From the NCBI GenBank assembly GCA_963674965.2, contig CAXXFL010000001.1:1088001-1152000 (forward strand): a stretch of 64,000 nt of DNA, in the 5' to 3' direction. A program made the translations under genes and the position numbers. The stretch is from a bacterium. GTDB lineage: Bacteria > RBG-13-61-14 > DATKZS01. This document shows, one piece after another, positions 5,552 through 57,593 of the stretch. The notes under the pieces are model-generated. The model was given only the letters and a program-made list of their open reading frames with translations. It was not told where the DNA came from and ran no database searches. Position 1 is the stretch's first letter; the number at the start of each line of letters is the position of its first letter.

Positions 5552-5662
5552 ATGAATACATCGAAGGGGAAGACGGGAATAATACTGACGGGGATCGTTC
5601 TTGTTCTGGTAACGATGGTCATGGCTTGCGATCGCCAGCATTTTTTCACCCCGCCAAGGTGA
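5552..5662 (+). CDS. 36-aa lipoprotein-like micro-ORF or truncated lipoprotein gene
   Basis: AGGGAG SD. MNTSKGKTGIILTGIVLVLVTMVMA-CDRQHFFTPPR*: positive N-region, hydrophobic H-region, lipobox-like VMA-C. Confidence 0.45.
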   Translation: MNTSKGKTGIILTGIVLVLVTMVMACDRQHFFTPPR

Positions 5663-5693
5663 GGGTTATAAAATCCATCCCATATTATAATTG

Positions 5694-7127
5694 CTGAACT
5701 TTAGAACTTTTTAGTCTGGTTTGCACGTATCGACATTAAGCAGCCTCCTTGAGGGGCGTAATTTCCTCTGGTTTGGGGTCGGAATGGAAAGCGGGAGAAA
5801 TTCGCAAAGCCTTGTAGAAAGCGCGTCGGAGCCGACCGACGCTTGGGGGGCCGCTCGGGTCCCACCACGGTTCGGCCTCGATCTTTTCCGCCTCCGGGAC
5901 GCAAAGGGCAAGCAGGCCCAAAAGGCCGTAGGCGACCAGGCAGAGGTTGGCGTGGCGCTTGATGGCCGTGAACGACCTCTGGCGATAGTCGCCGAAACCG
6001 CCCGCCGTCTTCACCTCCCGGAACAACTCCTCGATCTTCCAGCGGCCCGAATACGTTTCCAGCGCCCGCTCCGGCTTCATCTCGACGTCGGTGGTGAAAA
6101 ACACGTTCATTTTTTTGCCGGAGCGCCGGGGGAAAATGATGACGAGTATCGGCTTGTCGCCGAGGGTGGCGCTGGGGACCATCACCCCGACGAAGGCCTC
6201 GATGGTAACGGTCTTGCCGTAAATCCTGGCCTTGATTTTTTCGCGCTTCGATCTTTTCAACCACAGTTGTTGGGGGCTGAACTTCTTGCCGCGCTTGGGC
6301 GGCCTTCCCGGACCATTCTTCCTTTTGGGGAGTTCGTAGAGCGCCGCGTTCGAGCGGAGGCGGCTGATCAGGACCACCTCTTTGCCGTCGAACTCGAGAC
6401 CGGCCAACTTGGCCTTGGCGTAGAGGTTGTCCACCACCAGGACCAGTCTCCGAGCGGGCCAGGAGAACCTTTTTATCATCATGGCGGCCAACTCGATCTT
6501 GGTTTTGAACTCCCATCCCTTGGGGCAAAACTTTTCCTGGACGAAGAGCAGCGCCGAGAGGGGGAAGGCGAACCACTTGCCCCCGCGCTCCCATAGAAGC
6601 GCCATCACCACCCAGCAGTGGCCGAGCACCCGGCGCTTTTGATGGCCGGGGTTTTTGTCCGTCGGGTCCGGGTAATAGCCCAGACCGAAGAACTTCTTGC
6701 CCCATTTCTTGACCAGGGTGTCGTCGACGGCGACGACGATCTCGTCCATGATCTTGAGTCGTTGGGCCACCAGGTCGAGCAGGCATTGACTCACCTTTTG
6801 GCAGGACCACCGGCCCTTGCGCATGAAAGCGTAGGGCGTGGTCCAGTGCATGACCCGGTGGACTTGGGTGAGGCGCATGACCTCGGTCACGCAGTGCTGG
6901 AGACCGAACAGCGCCGCGTGGGCGATAATGAAGGTCTGGAAGTGCTCGAACCCGGGCTTGGAGAAGCAGTTGACAAATACAAGCATCAGCGGCAACATAA
7001 GAGCTTGAGCGTTCATCAGCGTTCACTCCCGCGTTATGAGGGCCGATCACACCTCTCATTATACGGGAAAAACTGGTGAACGCTATTTTTACATGGTGGA
7101 ACATGGCTAAAAAGTTCTAAAGTTCAG
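5694..7127 (-). mobile_element. Intact insertion sequence (IS701-like/IS4 superfamily DDE), 1434 bp
   Basis: Perfect 21-bp terminal inverted repeats ctgaactttagaactttttag (5694-5714) / ctaaaaagttctaaagttcag (7107-7127). 8-bp direct target duplication TATAATTG (5686-5693 and 7128-7135). Confidence 0.93.
5736..7016 (-). CDS. DDE transposase (IS701-like, DDE_5-type)
   Basis: VAVDDTLVKKWGKKFFG, VVDNLY, SRLRSNAALY and YSGRWKIEELFREVK motifs; lies inside the TIRs. Confidence 0.9.
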   Translation of the reverse strand: MNAQALMLPLMLVFVNCFSKPGFEHFQTFIIAHAALFGLQHCVTEVMRLTQVHRVMHWTTPYAFMRKGRWSCQKVSQCLLDLVAQRLKIMDEIVVAVDDTLVKKWGKKFFGLGYYPDPTDKNPGHQKRRVLGHCWVVMALLWERGGKWFAFPLSALLFVQEKFCPKGWEFKTKIELAAMMIKRFSWPARRLVLVVDNLYAKAKLAGLEFDGKEVVLISRLRSNAALYELPKRKNGPGRPPKRGKKFSPQQLWLKRSKREKIKARIYGKTVTIEAFVGVMVPSATLGDKPILVIIFPRRSGKKMNVFFTTDVEMKPERALETYSGRWKIEELFREVKTAGGFGDYRQRSFTAIKRHANLCLVAYGLLGLLALCVPEAEKIEAEPWWDPSGPPSVGRLRRAFYKALRISPAFHSDPKPEEITPLKEAA

Positions 7128-7475: not shown

Positions 7476-8462
7476 ATGATTAAAAAGATTTTTACGGCAG
7501 CGTTGGCATTGTTTATATTTGGGGCCTTCGGATGCAGGCCGAAGGAGGAGAAAAAGCCCGAGACCGGGGAGGGTCTTTCCATCTTGTGCTCTTTTCTTCC
7601 CTTGTGGGTGTTTACGGTTAACGTGGTGGGCGGCCGTCCCGGCGTCGAGGTGGACGTTTTAATCCCGGGCCATCAGGGGCCGCACGACTATCAGCTTACG
7701 CCGGCCGACATGCAGAAGATCGAGGGGGCCAACCTTTTCATCGCCAACGGCTATCACTTGGAGGAGTTTCTGACCGACTCCCTTCGCGAGGCCCGTCCCG
7801 ATATGCGCGTATTGATGGCGGCCGAGACCGTGAAGCCGATCATGATCGGGGATGACGGCGCGGCCGTCATCCATCTCGAGGCGGAAGAAGGGCATGATGA
7901 GGACGAAGCTTCTGGCCACCATCATGACCATGGCGTGGGCGGCGTGGACCCCCACGTTTTCGCCAGTCCACGCGACGCGGCCAAGATGGTGAACGCCATC
8001 GCCCTCGAGCTTATCCGTCTCGATCCAGAGGGGGAGCCGACCTACCGGGCCAACGCCGAGGCCTACATGAAAAAGCTGGAGGCCCTGGCCGACGAGTTCA
8101 AGGCCGTCGTGTCCGGCGCGAAGAGCGCCAAGGTGGTCACCTTCCACAACTCCCTCAACTACCTGGCCCGCGACTGCGGCCTCGAGGTAGTGGGAGTAAT
8201 CGAGAGCTCGCCCGGACAGCAGCCCTCCGCCGGAGAACTGGCCGCCCTGGCCCGGACCATCCGGGAGCAGGGGGCGGTCGCCGTCCTGGGGGAGCCCCAG
8301 TTCTCGGACGCTTTGGCTCGGGTGCTGGCCGAGGAATCCGGCGCCCGCCTCTCGAGCCTGGACCCGGGGGCCACCGGCGACATGACGCCCGAGGCCTATG
8401 AAAAGACCATGAAGGCCAACCTGGCCACTCTGCGCAAGATACTGCCGCCTGAAAGCCCTTAG
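7476..8462 (+). CDS. znuA: Zn/Mn ABC transporter substrate-binding lipoprotein (cluster A-I)
   Basis: Lipobox AFG-C. GPHDYQLTP, His/acidic loop GHDEDEASGHHHDHG, DPHVF, VTFHNSLNYLA. Confidence 0.88.
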   Translation: MIKKIFTAALALFIFGAFGCRPKEEKKPETGEGLSILCSFLPLWVFTVNVVGGRPGVEVDVLIPGHQGPHDYQLTPADMQKIEGANLFIANGYHLEEFLTDSLREARPDMRVLMAAETVKPIMIGDDGAAVIHLEAEEGHDEDEASGHHHDHGVGGVDPHVFASPRDAAKMVNAIALELIRLDPEGEPTYRANAEAYMKKLEALADEFKAVVSGAKSAKVVTFHNSLNYLARDCGLEVVGVIESSPGQQPSAGELAALARTIREQGAVAVLGEPQFSDALARVLAEESGARLSSLDPGATGDMTPEAYEKTMKANLATLRKILPPESP

Positions 8463-8560
8463 ACTCAGGCTGGAAACGATCGGCCGTCAGGGCCGGTTTC
8501 ACGAATCGCGTCGCCAAGGTTATAATTCTTATTGCCCGGACGCGAGGCCAAGACCCATAC

Positions 8561-12489: not shown

Positions 12490-13293
12490 TTATTGCTTGC
12501 CGGGCCAGTCGGCGTGAATCTTGACCAGCTCGTGGGCCTGTTCCGGCGTTCCCATTGGTGGGCCGAATTTTCCCTGCAGCTTGACCATGCCGTGAGGATA
12601 CTCCTTCTCGACCCATATGTAATAGGCGGGCATGAAGGCCTTCATCAGCCGCGAGCCGCCGATCCATTTTCCCGCGAACTGCTCGAGGTCGTATTCCATC
12701 CTGATCTTGAGGCACTCGAACTCGCCGGCGGGGACTTTGATTTTTTCCACGGCCTCCACGGTGAGGGTCACTTTCCACGGCTTCATTTCCGGACTGAATA
12801 AAAGATAACAGTCCGTGCTCTGCCCTACTCCCATGTTTATCACCATGGGGGCCAGGGCCAGGACGTTGACGTGAAAGGTGTTGGGAGGAAAATCGTAGAC
12901 CTCATCCCTGTAGTCGTGCTCGTAGCGCGCCACGACTTTTCCGCTGCGGCTGGTGATTTTTTTCTCGGCCTTGATAAGTGAGTAGTTGTCGGGATCGAGA
13001 ATAAACTCCCACAGCACCGAGTCGCCCTCGGGGGTCCTCTCCTCGCGCTTGAAGGCCAGGACCTTCTTGCCCTCCCAGGTGGTCGAGCAAAGCCAGACGG
13101 AAAACTCGGTGGCGTCGAAATAGCGCTTTTCGTCGCCGCCCGGCTCGCCGCCGTCCACGTTGATCACGCGGTAGTCGCGGCGGCACTGGTCTTTTACGTC
13201 AAGTTCTCCCCGGACCCCGGCGGCCAGTATCAGGGCAAAGATTAATACCATGCATATAATCAGCGCTTTAAAAAAGTTATTATGCTTCATCAT
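12490..13293 (-). CDS. Exported hypothetical protein (DUF3108-like)
   Basis: Signal peptide and EKIKVPAGEFECLKI motif. Confidence 0.6.
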   Translation of the reverse strand: MMKHNNFFKALIICMVLIFALILAAGVRGELDVKDQCRRDYRVINVDGGEPGGDEKRYFDATEFSVWLCSTTWEGKKVLAFKREERTPEGDSVLWEFILDPDNYSLIKAEKKITSRSGKVVARYEHDYRDEVYDFPPNTFHVNVLALAPMVINMGVGQSTDCYLLFSPEMKPWKVTLTVEAVEKIKVPAGEFECLKIRMEYDLEQFAGKWIGGSRLMKAFMPAYYIWVEKEYPHGMVKLQGKFGPPMGTPEQAHELVKIHADWPGKQ

Positions 13294-53811: not shown

Positions 53812-54978
53812 CTATATCGCCGGCGATAAGGAGACGTCGAAAAGGAACTGCATGTTGATGAAGAATATGTTGTCGTCCTGGTCGTCGGTAAAGTCGTTCA
53901 CCGTGTTTTTATCCACGTAGTTGGCCTGTATTCTGAAGGAGGGGGAAGGCGAGAAGTTGGCTCCGAAGGTCCAGTTTTTCTGGTCGGTCACGTCGCCGTT
54001 CTCGTCGAACTCGGATGAGAACTCGTCGTATCTTATTCCCAGCTCGAGTCTGTCGTCGAAAAAGGCCTGAACGACCTGTCCCCCGTATCCCTTATAGTCG
54101 TAGATATAGTTAAGGGCCACCCACAGGTCGTCCAGATGTCCCTCTCCGTAGAACCCGTAAATCCTGGTTCCCCAGGGAAGCTTCACCAAAAGATCGGCGC
54201 TCCAGGCTTCGCGGTCGATATCGAACACGGTCTTTTTGTCGTCGTAGAGCGCGTCCTCATGCTTGTTGTAGCTGTAATGGCCGCCCAGGGTGACCTCGGG
54301 AACCGCCTGCAGCTCGAGCCTGGCCCCGTAGAAGTATTCACCGAACTTGTTGGTGTAAAAATACTCGGGGCTTTCCTCGCCGCCCACGTAGAAGTTGCCC
54401 CCAATGCCGTTGGATATCATGAGGAAATAACGAAGCTGGGTCGCGTCGTCGTCCCCTATTTTTCCCTTGAAGGCCACGCCCATGTCGCGGTTGTTAGATG
54501 ACTGGGCCATGAGCAACGATATATATGGAGTGCGGGAAAGTGAATAGTCTCCCACCATCTTGGCGAAGGTCGTCCTGGTGATGAAGTCCAGGCCCTGATC
54601 GGGGGTGAGGACCTCGCCGGTCGAGGGTATCTTCATAAGACCCACGTAAAACCCCAGCCAGTCGGCCACGTGATATGCCCCCCAGGCGTCGATCACGTCC
54701 GTTCTTTCCTCGAGCCTCAGCTTGAACATGCCCTCGACCTTGCCGTCCGCGGTGAGGAAGTGAACGCCCAGCCGGCCCTGCTTGAAGTTGAAACCGCTGG
54801 CCTCGTCCACCGCCGGGTCGAGCGTTCCCTGCTGGAGCCGGCCGTTCTCGACCTGCTCCTGGACCACCCACCAGAAGTTGGCGTTGCCCGAAAGAGTGAC
54901 CATGGGACCATCCGATCCCAGGGCGAGGGCGGGAAATATAACCGCCGCCGCGATGGCCAGTATCGCCGTTTTTTTCAT
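53812..54978 (-). CDS. Outer-membrane porin-like beta-barrel (OprO/OprP-like)
   Basis: Signal peptide MKKTAILAIAAAVIFPALALG. GFNFKQGRL, DAWGAY, G.MKIP, RDMGV, RYD, WTFGANF, RIQANY alternating beta strands. Confidence 0.75.
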   Translation of the reverse strand: MKKTAILAIAAAVIFPALALGSDGPMVTLSGNANFWWVVQEQVENGRLQQGTLDPAVDEASGFNFKQGRLGVHFLTADGKVEGMFKLRLEERTDVIDAWGAYHVADWLGFYVGLMKIPSTGEVLTPDQGLDFITRTTFAKMVGDYSLSRTPYISLLMAQSSNNRDMGVAFKGKIGDDDATQLRYFLMISNGIGGNFYVGGEESPEYFYTNKFGEYFYGARLELQAVPEVTLGGHYSYNKHEDALYDDKKTVFDIDREAWSADLLVKLPWGTRIYGFYGEGHLDDLWVALNYIYDYKGYGGQVVQAFFDDRLELGIRYDEFSSEFDENGDVTDQKNWTFGANFSPSPSFRIQANYVDKNTVNDFTDDQDDNIFFINMQFLFDVSLSPAI

Positions 54979-55124
54979 TTTCTTTCTCTCCCATCCTGAG
55001 GCGGAAATGGCAACCGCCGTCATGCCTCGCGCGAAGTCAAAGGCGCGCGGTCTTTTATGACGCTCGAACGTCGTCCCCGGAAGGCCCTTCACGGGCCCGC
55101 CGGGGACGTTTTCCGCGCGTGGAT

Positions 55125-56438
55125 TTATGGCGTCTGTATGCCGTAGCCGTAAAGAAGTATCTTGTTTTCCTGGATCAGGGCCCAGCCGCCGTTGTTGATG
55201 TCGAACTCCTCGCATCCCTCGGGCATGGGCATGACCCTGATAACGACCGCTCCCTTGGCCATGTCCCCGGCGTTATGGCACTTGCATTCGTCGTATGGAT
55301 AGGTATCGGCCTCGGTGCATCCCATTTTATCCTGATCAAGCCCCCAGTCCGGATGCATGACGTATTTGGGGTCAAGGGTATCGCTGCAATCGGAGTCCTC
55401 GAGGTTTGCCATCCACGGGGGAATGACGTTCCGGAAGGGGCCCTCGCCCCCTATCTTTCCGCTCGAGTCGTCCAGATAGGCCTTGTCCAGCAGGCTTCCG
55501 TCCCTCTCGTAGGCCAGGAGGTGCCACATCTCGTCCACGATGGTCTCGCCGTCGCTGTAGCCGTGGGTTTGGGCCGGGTAATCCACGAAGGCGCACTCGC
55601 CGAGGTCGTTGACTCCGAAGCCGTCGAAGAAGTAGCTGGGCGGGAACTGGTCGGCGATCTTATCCACGTCAAAGGTGAGGCTGTAGCCGTCGGGAGCGAC
55701 CACGTGAATTCCCTCGACGCCGGCGCCGTCCAGTTCCAGGTCCAGTCCGCCATAGTGCTTGATGAAGTCCTTCATGCGCACGCCCTTGTAGTTGGCGTAA
55801 TTGTCGAACTGCTGCTTCGAGGTGTTGGAAAGCAGGAACATATCGTACTTGGCGATGCCGGCGTCGTTTCTTACCTGGTTCAGGGTTACCGTCACCACCG
55901 GGCAAAGCGCCTGGCCGGGCATGCTGCCCGCGTCGCCCGGGTACTTGACGTCGTCTATCTCCTCGCGGTTGGTGAAGCCGTCGCCGTCGCTGTCGTTCTG
56001 GTCGATTTTAACCAGGGCGTTGAGGTTTTTTCCATTTAGCATGTAGTCCTTGCCGTACTCGTTAAGGGTTTCCCAGAAGGTGGTGGGAAGACCGAGCCAC
56101 CCATCCATGGGATGCTCGATGTAATGGCAGAAGGTGCAAACGTCGGCCTGGATGTCCTTATAGCCGCCGCCCTTGGGTTTTTGCACCACCCCGCTCTTAT
56201 GGCAGGTCTGGCAGTCGTCAAGACGCGTGCCGTAAACCCACGGGTACACCCTGACGAAGTTGTTGATGTCCGCGTCGCTGGCGTGGCCCTTGTACGCGCG
56301 CGACGAGAAGTTCCTGTCGTCCGCGTTGTCGTCGTCGTGGTCGCATCCCGTTACGACGATGAACGAGGCGCCCACGGCGAAACTCGCCACGATGAGCGCC
56401 GCCAAAGCGCCGCTTGCCGCTTTCCTTAGACAATCCAT
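55125..56438 (-). CDS. GEGP-motif diheme c lipoprotein with molybdopterin-oxidoreductase-like C-terminal domain
   Basis: AGGAGG SD and lipobox VTG-C. CQTCH and CTFCH heme sites, DSDGDGFTNREE Ca-loop. YKGV...APDGY...LLAYERDG...GGEGPFRNVIP. Confidence 0.8.
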   Translation of the reverse strand: MDCLRKAASGALAALIVASFAVGASFIVVTGCDHDDDNADDRNFSSRAYKGHASDADINNFVRVYPWVYGTRLDDCQTCHKSGVVQKPKGGGYKDIQADVCTFCHYIEHPMDGWLGLPTTFWETLNEYGKDYMLNGKNLNALVKIDQNDSDGDGFTNREEIDDVKYPGDAGSMPGQALCPVVTVTLNQVRNDAGIAKYDMFLLSNTSKQQFDNYANYKGVRMKDFIKHYGGLDLELDGAGVEGIHVVAPDGYSLTFDVDKIADQFPPSYFFDGFGVNDLGECAFVDYPAQTHGYSDGETIVDEMWHLLAYERDGSLLDKAYLDDSSGKIGGEGPFRNVIPPWMANLEDSDCSDTLDPKYVMHPDWGLDQDKMGCTEADTYPYDECKCHNAGDMAKGAVVIRVMPMPEGCEEFDINNGGWALIQENKILLYGYGIQTP

Positions 56439-56523
56439 TTTACCCCTCCTGTTCTTCCCGACCCGGCGGACCGGGTCTCGCCCTTTCCAAAAACTGCCGC
56501 GCCTGGCCCAAAAAGGAGGGATC

Positions 56524-56555
56524 GAAAAATAATAAGGCTTCCCCCCTGGGAAGCC
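56524..56555 (-). terminator. Second intrinsic-terminator-like hairpin in the riboswitch leader
   Basis: Minus strand ggcttccc-aggg-gggaagcc followed by ttattattttt. Confidence 0.5.
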
Positions 56556-56570
56556 GGCCACGCGACCCGA

Positions 56571-56601
56571 ATAAAAAAGCGGTTCCCCATAATGAAACCG
56601 C
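56571..56601 (-). terminator. Intrinsic terminator, probable riboswitch expression platform
   Basis: Minus strand gcggtttc...ggaaccgc followed by tttttt. Confidence 0.65.
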
Positions 56602-56615
56602 TCGACCTCGGGCCG

Positions 56616-56719
56616 CGCCTCCTTTCCAAGCATGGGGGGCCGCGAGGTTTCCCCCGCCGCCGAATGGCCGGCTCGCCATAGCCATTTCTCCAGCCTTAGG
56701 CGAAGCCGACTCGGAGACG
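56616..56719 (-). ncRNA. Moco/Tuco (molybdenum/tungsten cofactor) riboswitch candidate, apparently lacking P3
   Basis: Minus strand CGUCUCCGAG...CCUAAG...GCUAUGG...GCGGGG-GAAA-CCUCGC...CCCCC...UUGGAAAGGAGGCG. P1 pairs CGUCUCC/GGAGGCG; GNRA-capped P4; conserved UUGGAAAGG. Confidence 0.8.
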
Positions 56720-56725
56720 AGGAAT

Positions 56726-56754
56726 ATTTTATAAAAACGAGACAGAATAGTCAA
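56726..56754 (-). promoter_or_regulatory. Sigma-70 promoter for the riboswitch-diheme-porin unit
   Basis: TTGACT (56754-56749), N17, TAAAAT (56731-56726); 6 nt before the aptamer. Confidence 0.7.
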
Positions 56755-56888: not shown

Positions 56889-57593
56889 TTGAAGACCGAT
56901 CCAATTATAGTAAAAAAGCGGCTCGCCCGCATACTGGCCTGGGCCATCGTGTTTCTCTTATGGCTGGCCGCGACCAGGGCCACCCTTCATAATCCGCTTC
57001 TGAACTTCTCGGTGGTGGACCCGGGCAGGCTTATGCGCTCGGGCCAGCCGTACGCGCAAGATTACGAGGAGATAAAGTCCACAAAGGGCCTGGGCACGAT
57101 CGTCAATCTGCGCGGCTCCATCCGCGCCGCCGAAAGGGAGTGGGCCGAGGCCAACGGCGTCAAGGTGATCGCCATGCGCATGTGGGCGGATATCCCTCCC
57201 AAGTCCTCCCAGGTGGGGGTCTTCTTCGCCGTCATGAGGGGAGAGCCGATAAACGTCGCGGCCAACGACGATATAATCGTCGAGCACGCCGGGTTGGGCG
57301 GCGAGGAAACGGTGACCTTTCCTTTCCCCGTGCTTTTGCACTGCGAGGGGGGCTCGGACCGGACGGGCGTTCTGACCGCCCTTTACCGCGTGGCCTTCAT
57401 GGGTTGGAGCATGGATGACGCCAAACTCGAGGCCATGCTCAACTGGCACATACCCCCGTCGCATCCGGACCAGTTCAAGTACCTTGACGGCGTCAAAGGT
57501 CCGATAGGCCCATCTTTCGGGGACGAGCCGCGCAAGACGAAGGAGTCCGCCAAGGAGGAAATAAAGGGGCCATCCCCCTCGCCGCTGGATTAA
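56889..57593 (+). CDS. Membrane-anchored protein-tyrosine/dual-specificity phosphatase family protein
   Basis: NFSVVDPGRLMRSGQP, IVNLRG, LLHCEGGSDRTG (HCxxGxxR). N-terminal TM. Confidence 0.82.
   Translation: MKTDPIIVKKRLARILAWAIVFLLWLAATRATLHNPLLNFSVVDPGRLMRSGQPYAQDYEEIKSTKGLGTIVNLRGSIRAAEREWAEANGVKVIAMRMWADIPPKSSQVGVFFAVMRGEPINVAANDDIIVEHAGLGGEETVTFPFPVLLHCEGGSDRTGVLTALYRVAFMGWSMDDAKLEAMLNWHIPPSHPDQFKYLDGVKGPIGPSFGDEPRKTKESAKEEIKGPSPSPLD

Follow-up and report, generated by a model that had tools for sequence, protein, structure and literature searches.

A tungsten-type Moco riboswitch upstream of a diheme lipoprotein and a porin: a candidate outer-envelope module for tungsten acquisition

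Molybdenum cofactor (Moco) RNAs include a class that lacks the P3 stem (58 of 176 RNAs), and in the available text of Regulski et al. 2008 (PMC2408646) this class tracks tungsten-cofactor (Tuco) metabolism. The genes known to belong to its regulon encode transporters, biosynthetic proteins and enzymes; neither 'porin' nor 'cytochrome' appears as a word in the main text of that report as available (PMC2408646). Here we analyzed a 64,000-nucleotide stretch of bacterial DNA (hereafter, the window; contig CAXXFL010000001.1, positions 1,088,001 to 1,152,000), in which an RNA of this class precedes the genes for a diheme lipoprotein with a GEGP motif (P0001) and for an outer-membrane porin (P0002). 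The window RNA is like the Tuco class (RF01055; available text of PMC2408646) in matching the full model, in lacking P3, in being followed by an intrinsic terminator and in residing in a genome with TupA-like and AFOR genes. It differs in the genes that it heads, a diheme lipoprotein gene and a porin gene.

For the C-terminal domain of the lipoprotein, the closest working model would be PruR, a periplasmic protein of sulfite oxidase (SUOX)-like fold that lacks the Mo-ligating cysteine and binds pterins (available text of PMC11194511). GEGP proteins would share with PruR (7kos, 7kou, 7kom, 7rkb; PMC11194511, as available) an extracytoplasmic location and, as a distant predicted similarity, the SUOX-like fold, and they likewise lack the Mo-ligating cysteine, whereas PruR is small, single-domain and encoded with DcpA-type signalling proteins. 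The window protein, at 437 amino acids, is multidomain and has porin and, in related loci, tup neighbors instead of a pruR-dcpA operon. GEGP proteins are further unlike PruR in having a 130-residue diheme domain, an insertion of ~43 residues, a long C-terminal extension and Asn where PruR has Trp, in being encoded with outer-membrane channels and tup genes, and in their low structural alignment scores to it (given below).

OprP and OprO are phosphate-starvation anion porins, induced when a nutrient oxyanion is scarce, and the window operon can be likened to them in that P0002 matches Porin_O_P above the cut-off and in the proposed induction of an anion porin under scarcity. It differs from them in the weakness of this match (31.5 bits), in having a cofactor riboswitch and not Pho control, and in the heme-lipoprotein gene as obligate partner. 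In Bacteroides, a B12 riboswitch governs BtuB and the surface lipoprotein BtuG, so that a cofactor riboswitch stands over an outer-membrane channel and a lipoprotein of cofactor-binding-type fold; folds, cargo and, in most loci, channel type differ from those described here, and the likeness is one of analogy only.

The operon is on the minus strand of the window. A first-pass annotation made from the sequence had proposed a promoter, an aptamer, terminators, a lipoprotein with two CxxCH sites and then a porin, and all of these elements are present:

56726..56754, minus strand: sigma-70-like promoter site, TTGACT-17 nt-TAAAAT, matching the consensus at 10 of 12 positions
56603..56728, minus strand: Moco/Tuco riboswitch aptamer, P3-lacking variant, by covariance-model match to RF01055
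56567..56603, minus strand: first intrinsic-terminator-like hairpin (10 pairs) and U tract, TTTTTATT
56526..56555, minus strand: second terminator-like hairpin (8 pairs, 6 of them G-C) with a U-rich tail
55125..56438, minus strand: GEGP diheme lipoprotein gene P0001 (NF041762), 437 amino acids, best start ATG at 56438
55128..55907, minus strand: SUOX-like domain in the C-terminal half of P0001 (residues 178-437), lacking the Mo-ligating cysteine
53812..54978, minus strand: outer-membrane porin gene P0002, 388 amino acids, Porin_O_P type (PF07396)

The leader matched RF01055 over the complete model (1-135) at 59.6 bits (gathering score 36; E 8.8e-12), with a deletion in the alignment where the model has its P3 stem. 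The match (56728-56603) encloses the Moco-RNA-like aptamer that had been proposed at 56719-56616, which is thus borne out by the Rfam covariance model. No other RF01055 match turned up in the genome (6.5 Mb), with 150 of 877 first-look candidates scored, so further copies are possible. A terminator scan placed the two hairpins at 56603-56577 and 56555-56536. The first terminator hairpin begins at the last base of the match, the expression platform thus adjoining the aptamer, and is present in every RNAfold prediction of the leader. In folds inspected by eye, a hairpin and U tract lie 3' of the aptamer in five of the six GEGP-operon riboswitches examined (the window and the related loci L003, L050, L052 and L070), and no terminator hairpin follows the aptamer of L079. 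Hairpins in tandem were seen in the window, L052 and L070 (by eye; those of the window also by terminator scan). An aptamer followed by a terminator is the usual transcriptional OFF arrangement, from which we infer the direction of switching. The promoter alone is weak evidence because a scan detected 2 such sites in a region of 3.7 kb against 1.4 expected from shuffles. Near-identical contigs covering 55442-55647 and 56283-56518 are present in one metatranscriptome library of a different study; contigs in an RNA library prove neither transcription nor termination, stretches without contigs carry no information, and the match is therefore only a weak hint of expression.

P0001 scored 375 bits against the NCBIfam family NF041762, 'GEGP motif-containing diheme protein' (cut-off 300), and no Pfam family reached threshold with it. 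Its signal peptide ends in VVTGC, with the lipid-bearing cysteine at residue 32. Two heme motifs follow, CQTCH at residues 76-80 (56213-56199) and CTFCH at residues 101-105 (56138-56124), and the GEGP motif is at residues 331-334 (55448-55437). Across 59 GEGP sequences C76, C79, H80, C101, C104, H105, G331, G333 and P334 are invariant, as are, besides the two CxxCH histidines, His52 and His388, which could be the distal heme ligands. The aligned position of the lipid cysteine is Cys in 58 of the 59 sequences; a loose RR motif occurs in four, none of them canonical, and the signal is that of a Sec-type lipoprotein. Directly after the lipid cysteine is an acidic run, DHDDDN (residues 33-38; 56342-56327), which we take to resemble the surface-export signals of Bacteroidota lipoproteins. 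The six residues after this cysteine contain a mean of 2.2 Asp/Glu in 58 sequences, with Ser (31) or Asp (5) at the +2 position. Between the heme domain and the SUOX-like domain, a conserved DSDGDG stretch (residues 148-161; 55998-55957) gave sub-threshold matches to Temptin_C, TSP3_bac and Amuc_1099 and may form a calcium-binding loop.

The GEGP family is mostly metagenomic, with 608 proteins at E <= 0.001 among 8000 candidates scored and 479 cluster representatives, and the window gene is the only member found in its own genome. In the acidobacterial (Acidobacteriota) locus L057, a second copy of the C-terminal domain (7864-8550), 24% identical to that of the window, is located ~700 nt downstream of the first and looks like a tandem paralogue. 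In a locus from the class of the window (L139/L141; G091:C52:10465-11483), the GEGP match is in two overlapping pieces (model 1-195 and 197-358), the second with one in-frame TGA, and the gene is either broken or recoded.

The C-terminal domain of P0001 is predicted to have a distant similarity to the SUOX fold. AlphaFold2 gave a predicted local distance difference test (pLDDT) score of 86.2 for the whole protein (59 sequences) and of 94.1 for residues 178-437 (70 sequences). Foldseek was run with both models against the PDB, and the best-ranked chains listed, 28 for the whole model and 22 for the domain, all have the SUOX fold. The PruR pterin-binding proteins (7kos, 7kou, 7kom, 7kp2, 7rkb), chicken and plant sulfite oxidase and SorA are at the top, and SorT, the Thermus sulfite oxidase and SoxCD (2xts) are lower. 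Foldseek probabilities for the best matches were 0.93-0.99; the best E values were 7e-3 and 3e-3, none reaching 0.001, and template modelling (TM) scores were <0.5, except for a target-normalised 0.56 to 7kom. PDB sequence searches with P0001 and with the family profile returned chance-level matches only, with no SUOX match, and P0001 had no match to PF00174 at E up to 1. When the C-terminal columns were aligned by hhalign with 13 PF00174 proteins from other genomes, the probability was 67% (E 5e-5, 73 columns). A second co-linear local alignment paired hilAYeRdG...GEGPfRnviP with llAxxmxGxpLpxxhGxPlRlVxP, and this leaves a GEGP-specific insertion of ~43 residues. An Atlas look-up with residues 178-437 placed a PF00174-bearing cluster at rank 3 (score 0.87), which is a lead and not evidence. 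The first-pass annotation had read the pattern of sulfite-oxidase-family molybdopterin binding in this half of the protein. Given the co-linear alignments that reading was reasonable: YKGV, APDGY, LLAYERDG and GPFRNVIP are in the translation and a distant SUOX similarity holds in sequence and in predicted structure, but membership of PF00174 does not, and the structural matches stay at the E values and TM scores given above.

The column of the Mo-ligating cysteine holds Asn205 in the hhalign alignment, and Asn is found there in 69 of 70 sequences. No cysteine is invariant in the domain; the only frequent ones, C282 and C374, occur together in 42 of the 70 sequences, are missing together in 27 and occur one without the other in a single sequence, a pattern as expected for a dispensable extracytoplasmic disulfide and not for a metal ligand. 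Asp250 is present in 70 of 70, and residue 252 is Tyr in 50 and Phe in 20; by its position, this APDGY motif would correspond to the conserved SUOX tyrosine. Sulfite-oxidase-family enzymes with heme partners (1sox; SorAB, 2blf; SoxCD, 2xts) have in common with GEGP proteins a predicted, distantly similar fold, the association with heme (c- or b-type) and the co-linear motifs xGV, DGY, LLAYExxG and GxPxRxxxP. GEGP proteins differ from them in lacking the Mo-ligating cysteine, a PF00174 match and a Tat signal, and in carrying the hemes on the same Sec-exported lipoprotein.

P0002 matches Porin_O_P (PF07396) over residues 57-380 (model 21-370; cut-off 20.9 bits), and five arginines are invariant in 32 porin-family sequences, which would fit an anion channel. 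To see how the pair is conserved, we collected 80 homologous loci from about ten phyla, including Krumholzibacteriota, Eisenbacteria, Myxococcota, Acidobacteriota, Aminicenantes, Planctomycetota, Spirochaetota, Gemmatimonadota, Poribacteria and delta-proteobacterial metagenome-assembled genomes (MAGs). A porin homologue is directly downstream of the GEGP gene on the same strand in 50 of these loci, and a TonB-dependent receptor is adjacent in 7 (Acidobacteriota-type loci). The downstream DNA is too short to tell in 6, and neither partner was found in 17, so that 57 of the 74 loci with enough downstream DNA have an outer-membrane channel gene beside GEGP. A predicted complex of porin residues 22-388 with GEGP residues 33-437 gave scores of 0.00 and 0.16, where the mark is 0.32, which says nothing either way. 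Some open reading frames (ORFs) called in GC-rich loci are antisense shadows (clusters 2 and 61 and, in L065, the one that follows GEGP) and were dropped; a real Peptidase_M20 gene is on the opposite strand.

Genes for the handling of tungsten and molybdenum are linked to GEGP genes in many of these loci. Within 6 kb of GEGP, tblastn detected TunR-like regulators (HTH_17 plus PBP_like) in 20 of the 80 loci, TupA-like proteins in 17, TupB-like proteins in 15, MoeA in 10, MoaC-MoaB in 8 and AFOR in 3. The combination of HTH_17 and PBP_like is, we assume, the architecture of the tungstate-responsive regulator TunR. Representative neighbors (Pfam, NCBIfam) also include TupC/WtpC-like ABC subunits, MoaC-MoaB fusions and a MobA-like protein. 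Proteins and RNAs taken together, at least one Mo/W item is present in 40 of the 80 loci. A search for RF01055 in the 79 genomes behind the loci (<=60 candidates scored per genome) revealed 35 Moco RNAs in 21 genomes, of which 15 are inside 12 GEGP loci. P3 is absent in all 10 neighboring Moco RNAs among the alignments listed.

The order of genes in several operons is informative. L003 and L079 have the order Moco RNA-GEGP-porin, as in the window, and L050 has Moco RNA-TupA-TupB-TupC-GEGP-porin. In L052 and L070 the order is Moco RNA-Kelch propeller-GEGP-porin, with the Kelch-repeat beta-propeller gene at L052:1988-3322 and L070:2100-3605, in two MAGs from the order of the window. Seven loci of Aminicenantes type have a TupABC-MoeA-MoaCB operon at a distance of 1.2-2.1 kb from GEGP, headed by a Moco RNA on the opposite strand. 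Full-length GEGP proteins are encoded in 4 of 11 genomes of the window's order, the other three being those of L003, L052 and L070, and a P3-lacking Moco RNA heads the GEGP operon in all four. Some loci have more than one such RNA: L079, from a Spirochaetia MAG, has three P3-lacking Moco RNAs in 5 kb (847-968, 5596-5719 and 5807-5926), among them a divergent, back-to-back pair, and L003 has two (5688-5812 and 12763-12900), heading convergent operons.

The genomes that carry GEGP genes also tend to encode AFOR-type tungstoenzymes. AFOR-family genes were detected in 48 of the 50 GEGP genomes searched and in 14 of a sample of 48 unrelated genomes, and they are present in 13 of 13 genomes of the window's class, counts that give a direction and not a statistic because related genomes are not independent. 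The genome of the window itself has four AFOR genes and one TupA-like gene ~140 kb away from the operon; no PF00174 or PF12727 match and no PBP_like regulator were found in it. Seven genomes have 21-27 AFOR_C matches each (G043, G050, G053, G056, G062, G064 and G067, with loci L047, L054, L057, L060, L066, L068 and L071), and in five of these seven AFOR-rich loci (L047, L054, L057, L066 and L068) a TonB-dependent receptor, not a porin, flanks GEGP. The link of the diheme GEGP family to Mo/W cofactor biology that had been proposed from the window alone is thus recovered across the homologues, with the porin in 50, a Moco RNA in 12 and Mo/W items in 40 of the 80 loci, and with AFOR genes in nearly all GEGP genomes searched. 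The type of riboswitch and the type of transporter point to tungsten over molybdenum.

The reading that we favor, at about an even chance of being correct, is that the operon is the outer-envelope front end of tungsten (possibly also molybdenum) acquisition, repressed when the cofactor is plentiful. The P3-lacking Moco RNA would shut the operon off when tungsten cofactor is plentiful, and transcription would read through the terminator or terminators when it is scarce. The Porin_O_P-type porin would let tungstate-like species cross the outer membrane by an anion-selective route, with a TonB-dependent receptor in its place in what would be heavy tungsten users (genomes with 21-27 AFOR matches each). 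The diheme protein, exported by Sec and anchored by its lipid, would bind or redox-process W/Mo species in its Cys-less SUOX-like pocket, and TupA-TupBC would then move the oxyanion across the inner membrane. By gene order, the operon of L050 encodes this whole proposed path in one transcript. As a speculation, the hemes might convert thio-tungstate or thio-molybdate, or reduced or mineral-bound forms, to an oxyanion acceptable to TupA. Literature searches turned up no paper describing a GEGP-porin module, no outer-membrane step dedicated to the uptake of tungsten or molybdenum and no function for the GEGP diheme family, widespread as it is; the GEGP-porin operon probably represents a step of tungsten acquisition at the outer envelope that is as yet undescribed.

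Several observations weigh against tungsten acquisition. Half of the loci (40 of 80) have no Mo/W neighbor, only 12 of 80 have a Moco RNA, and counts across related MAGs are not independent. NF041772 is the best and only match of the TupA-like proteins, and their tungstate specificity is not established because they score 213-252 bits, under the 400-bit equivalog cut-off. The match of the porin to Porin_O_P is weak and its selectivity is a prediction. When the leader was folded by minimum free energy (MFE), the aptamer fold of the Rfam model was not recovered and no clear antiterminator appeared, which is why the OFF direction is drawn from the arrangement of the elements; a weak alternative pairing, CCCCCAUG with the terminator loop and 3' arm, appeared in a truncated fold only. 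Nothing explains why tungstate uptake should need two c-type hemes or a pterin-type fold. Finally, the assignment of P3-lacking RNAs to the tungsten cofactor is, in the available text of the 2008 study, a correlation and not a binding measurement (PMC2408646).

The alternative that survives best, though we consider it unlikely, is that the SUOX-like domain captures a cofactor or pterin outside the cytoplasm (molybdopterin, the W/Mo cofactor, cyclic pyranopterin monophosphate or another pterin), which the channel then imports, in parallel with BtuB and BtuG. In the PDB the domain best matches the PruR proteins, periplasmic binders of pterins that are SUOX-like and lack the cysteine as well (available text of PMC11194511), and the invariant Asp250 with Tyr or Phe at residue 252 fits stacking and not catalysis. 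TonB-dependent receptors, typically for larger cargo, replace the porin in 7 loci, a Kelch beta-propeller is encoded between riboswitch and GEGP in L052 and L070, and control by a cofactor-sensing riboswitch fits capture as well as it fits metal uptake. However, no inner-membrane pterin transporter is evident, the linked ABC systems best match TupABC, and TM scores to PruR are <0.5. Most partners are OprP-type anion porins, and the known porins of this type are narrow. To our knowledge, bacterial uptake of Moco has not been described. From the gene neighbors and the anion-porin type, a metal oxyanion is a likelier cargo than a finished cofactor. In a bolder form, which we regard as more doubtful still, GEGP proteins would serve outside the cytoplasm as SUOX-fold receptors, linked to heme and without the cysteine, for tungsto- or molybdopterin (or a precursor) released by other cells, which they would feed through the porin or the TonB-dependent receptor. 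If true, this would be cofactor piracy under the control of a cofactor riboswitch, and the first bacterial uptake route for this cofactor.

There is a slight chance that the lipoprotein is a periplasmic redox enzyme with heme and W/Mo cofactor, a fused counterpart of SorAB or SoxCD that is made in accordance with the cofactor supply. Two c-type hemes and a SUOX-like domain are combined in one protein, SoxCD and SorA are among its structural matches, and in S. wolfei P3-lacking RNAs precede genes for putative sulfite oxidases (Regulski et al. 2008, PMC2408646, as available). On the other side, Asn occupies the Mo-ligating column in 69 of 70 sequences with no invariant cysteine in the domain, PF00174 gave no match at E up to 1, and the signal is of Sec-type lipoprotein kind, with a loose RR motif in only 4 of 59. 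The route of export is a further objection. Known periplasmic Moco enzymes are loaded with their cofactor in the cytoplasm before export by Tat, whereas covalent attachment of c-type heme requires Sec export of an unfolded chain; a Sec-exported chain with c-type hemes could therefore not be loaded with Moco by any known route. The terminator architecture also points to a gene that the cofactor represses, and an apoenzyme would need the reverse. A classical Moco enzyme is unlikely because the Mo-ligating cysteine is absent and the signal is that of a Sec-type lipoprotein. Of the two functions that the first-pass annotation had offered, the scavenging module fits better, and the new heme-Mo/W enzyme is disfavored by the missing cysteine, the signal and the c-type hemes.

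That the pair is a minimal porin-cytochrome conduit for extracellular electron transfer, with an indirect tungsten link, is very improbable: a heme lipoprotein gene does adjoin a beta-barrel gene, but conduits of the MtrAB/PioAB type have a multiheme cytochrome (about ten hemes) inside a large barrel, whereas the window pair has two hemes only and a 388-aa OprP-type porin with no large sheath, the linkage to tup, moe and moa genes and riboswitches spans phyla, and TonB-dependent receptors are in the porin's place in 7 loci. The remaining probability goes to some other role, including sensing.

The genes that flank the operon, named from a reading of their translations, look unrelated to metal metabolism, with an RsmB-like methyltransferase downstream and phosphatase-like and vWA-like proteins upstream. 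The translation of a divergent upstream ORF (56889-57593, plus strand) contains HCEGGSDRTG, which resembles the signature of Cys-based phosphatases.

If tungsten acquisition at the outer envelope is the role of the GEGP-porin operon, the sulfite-oxidase fold would have a new use outside the cytoplasm, and the regulon of P3-lacking Moco RNAs would include one more class of proteins. If the module gates the supply of tungsten, it would bear on how anaerobes in sediments and wastewater are supplied with a scarce metal.

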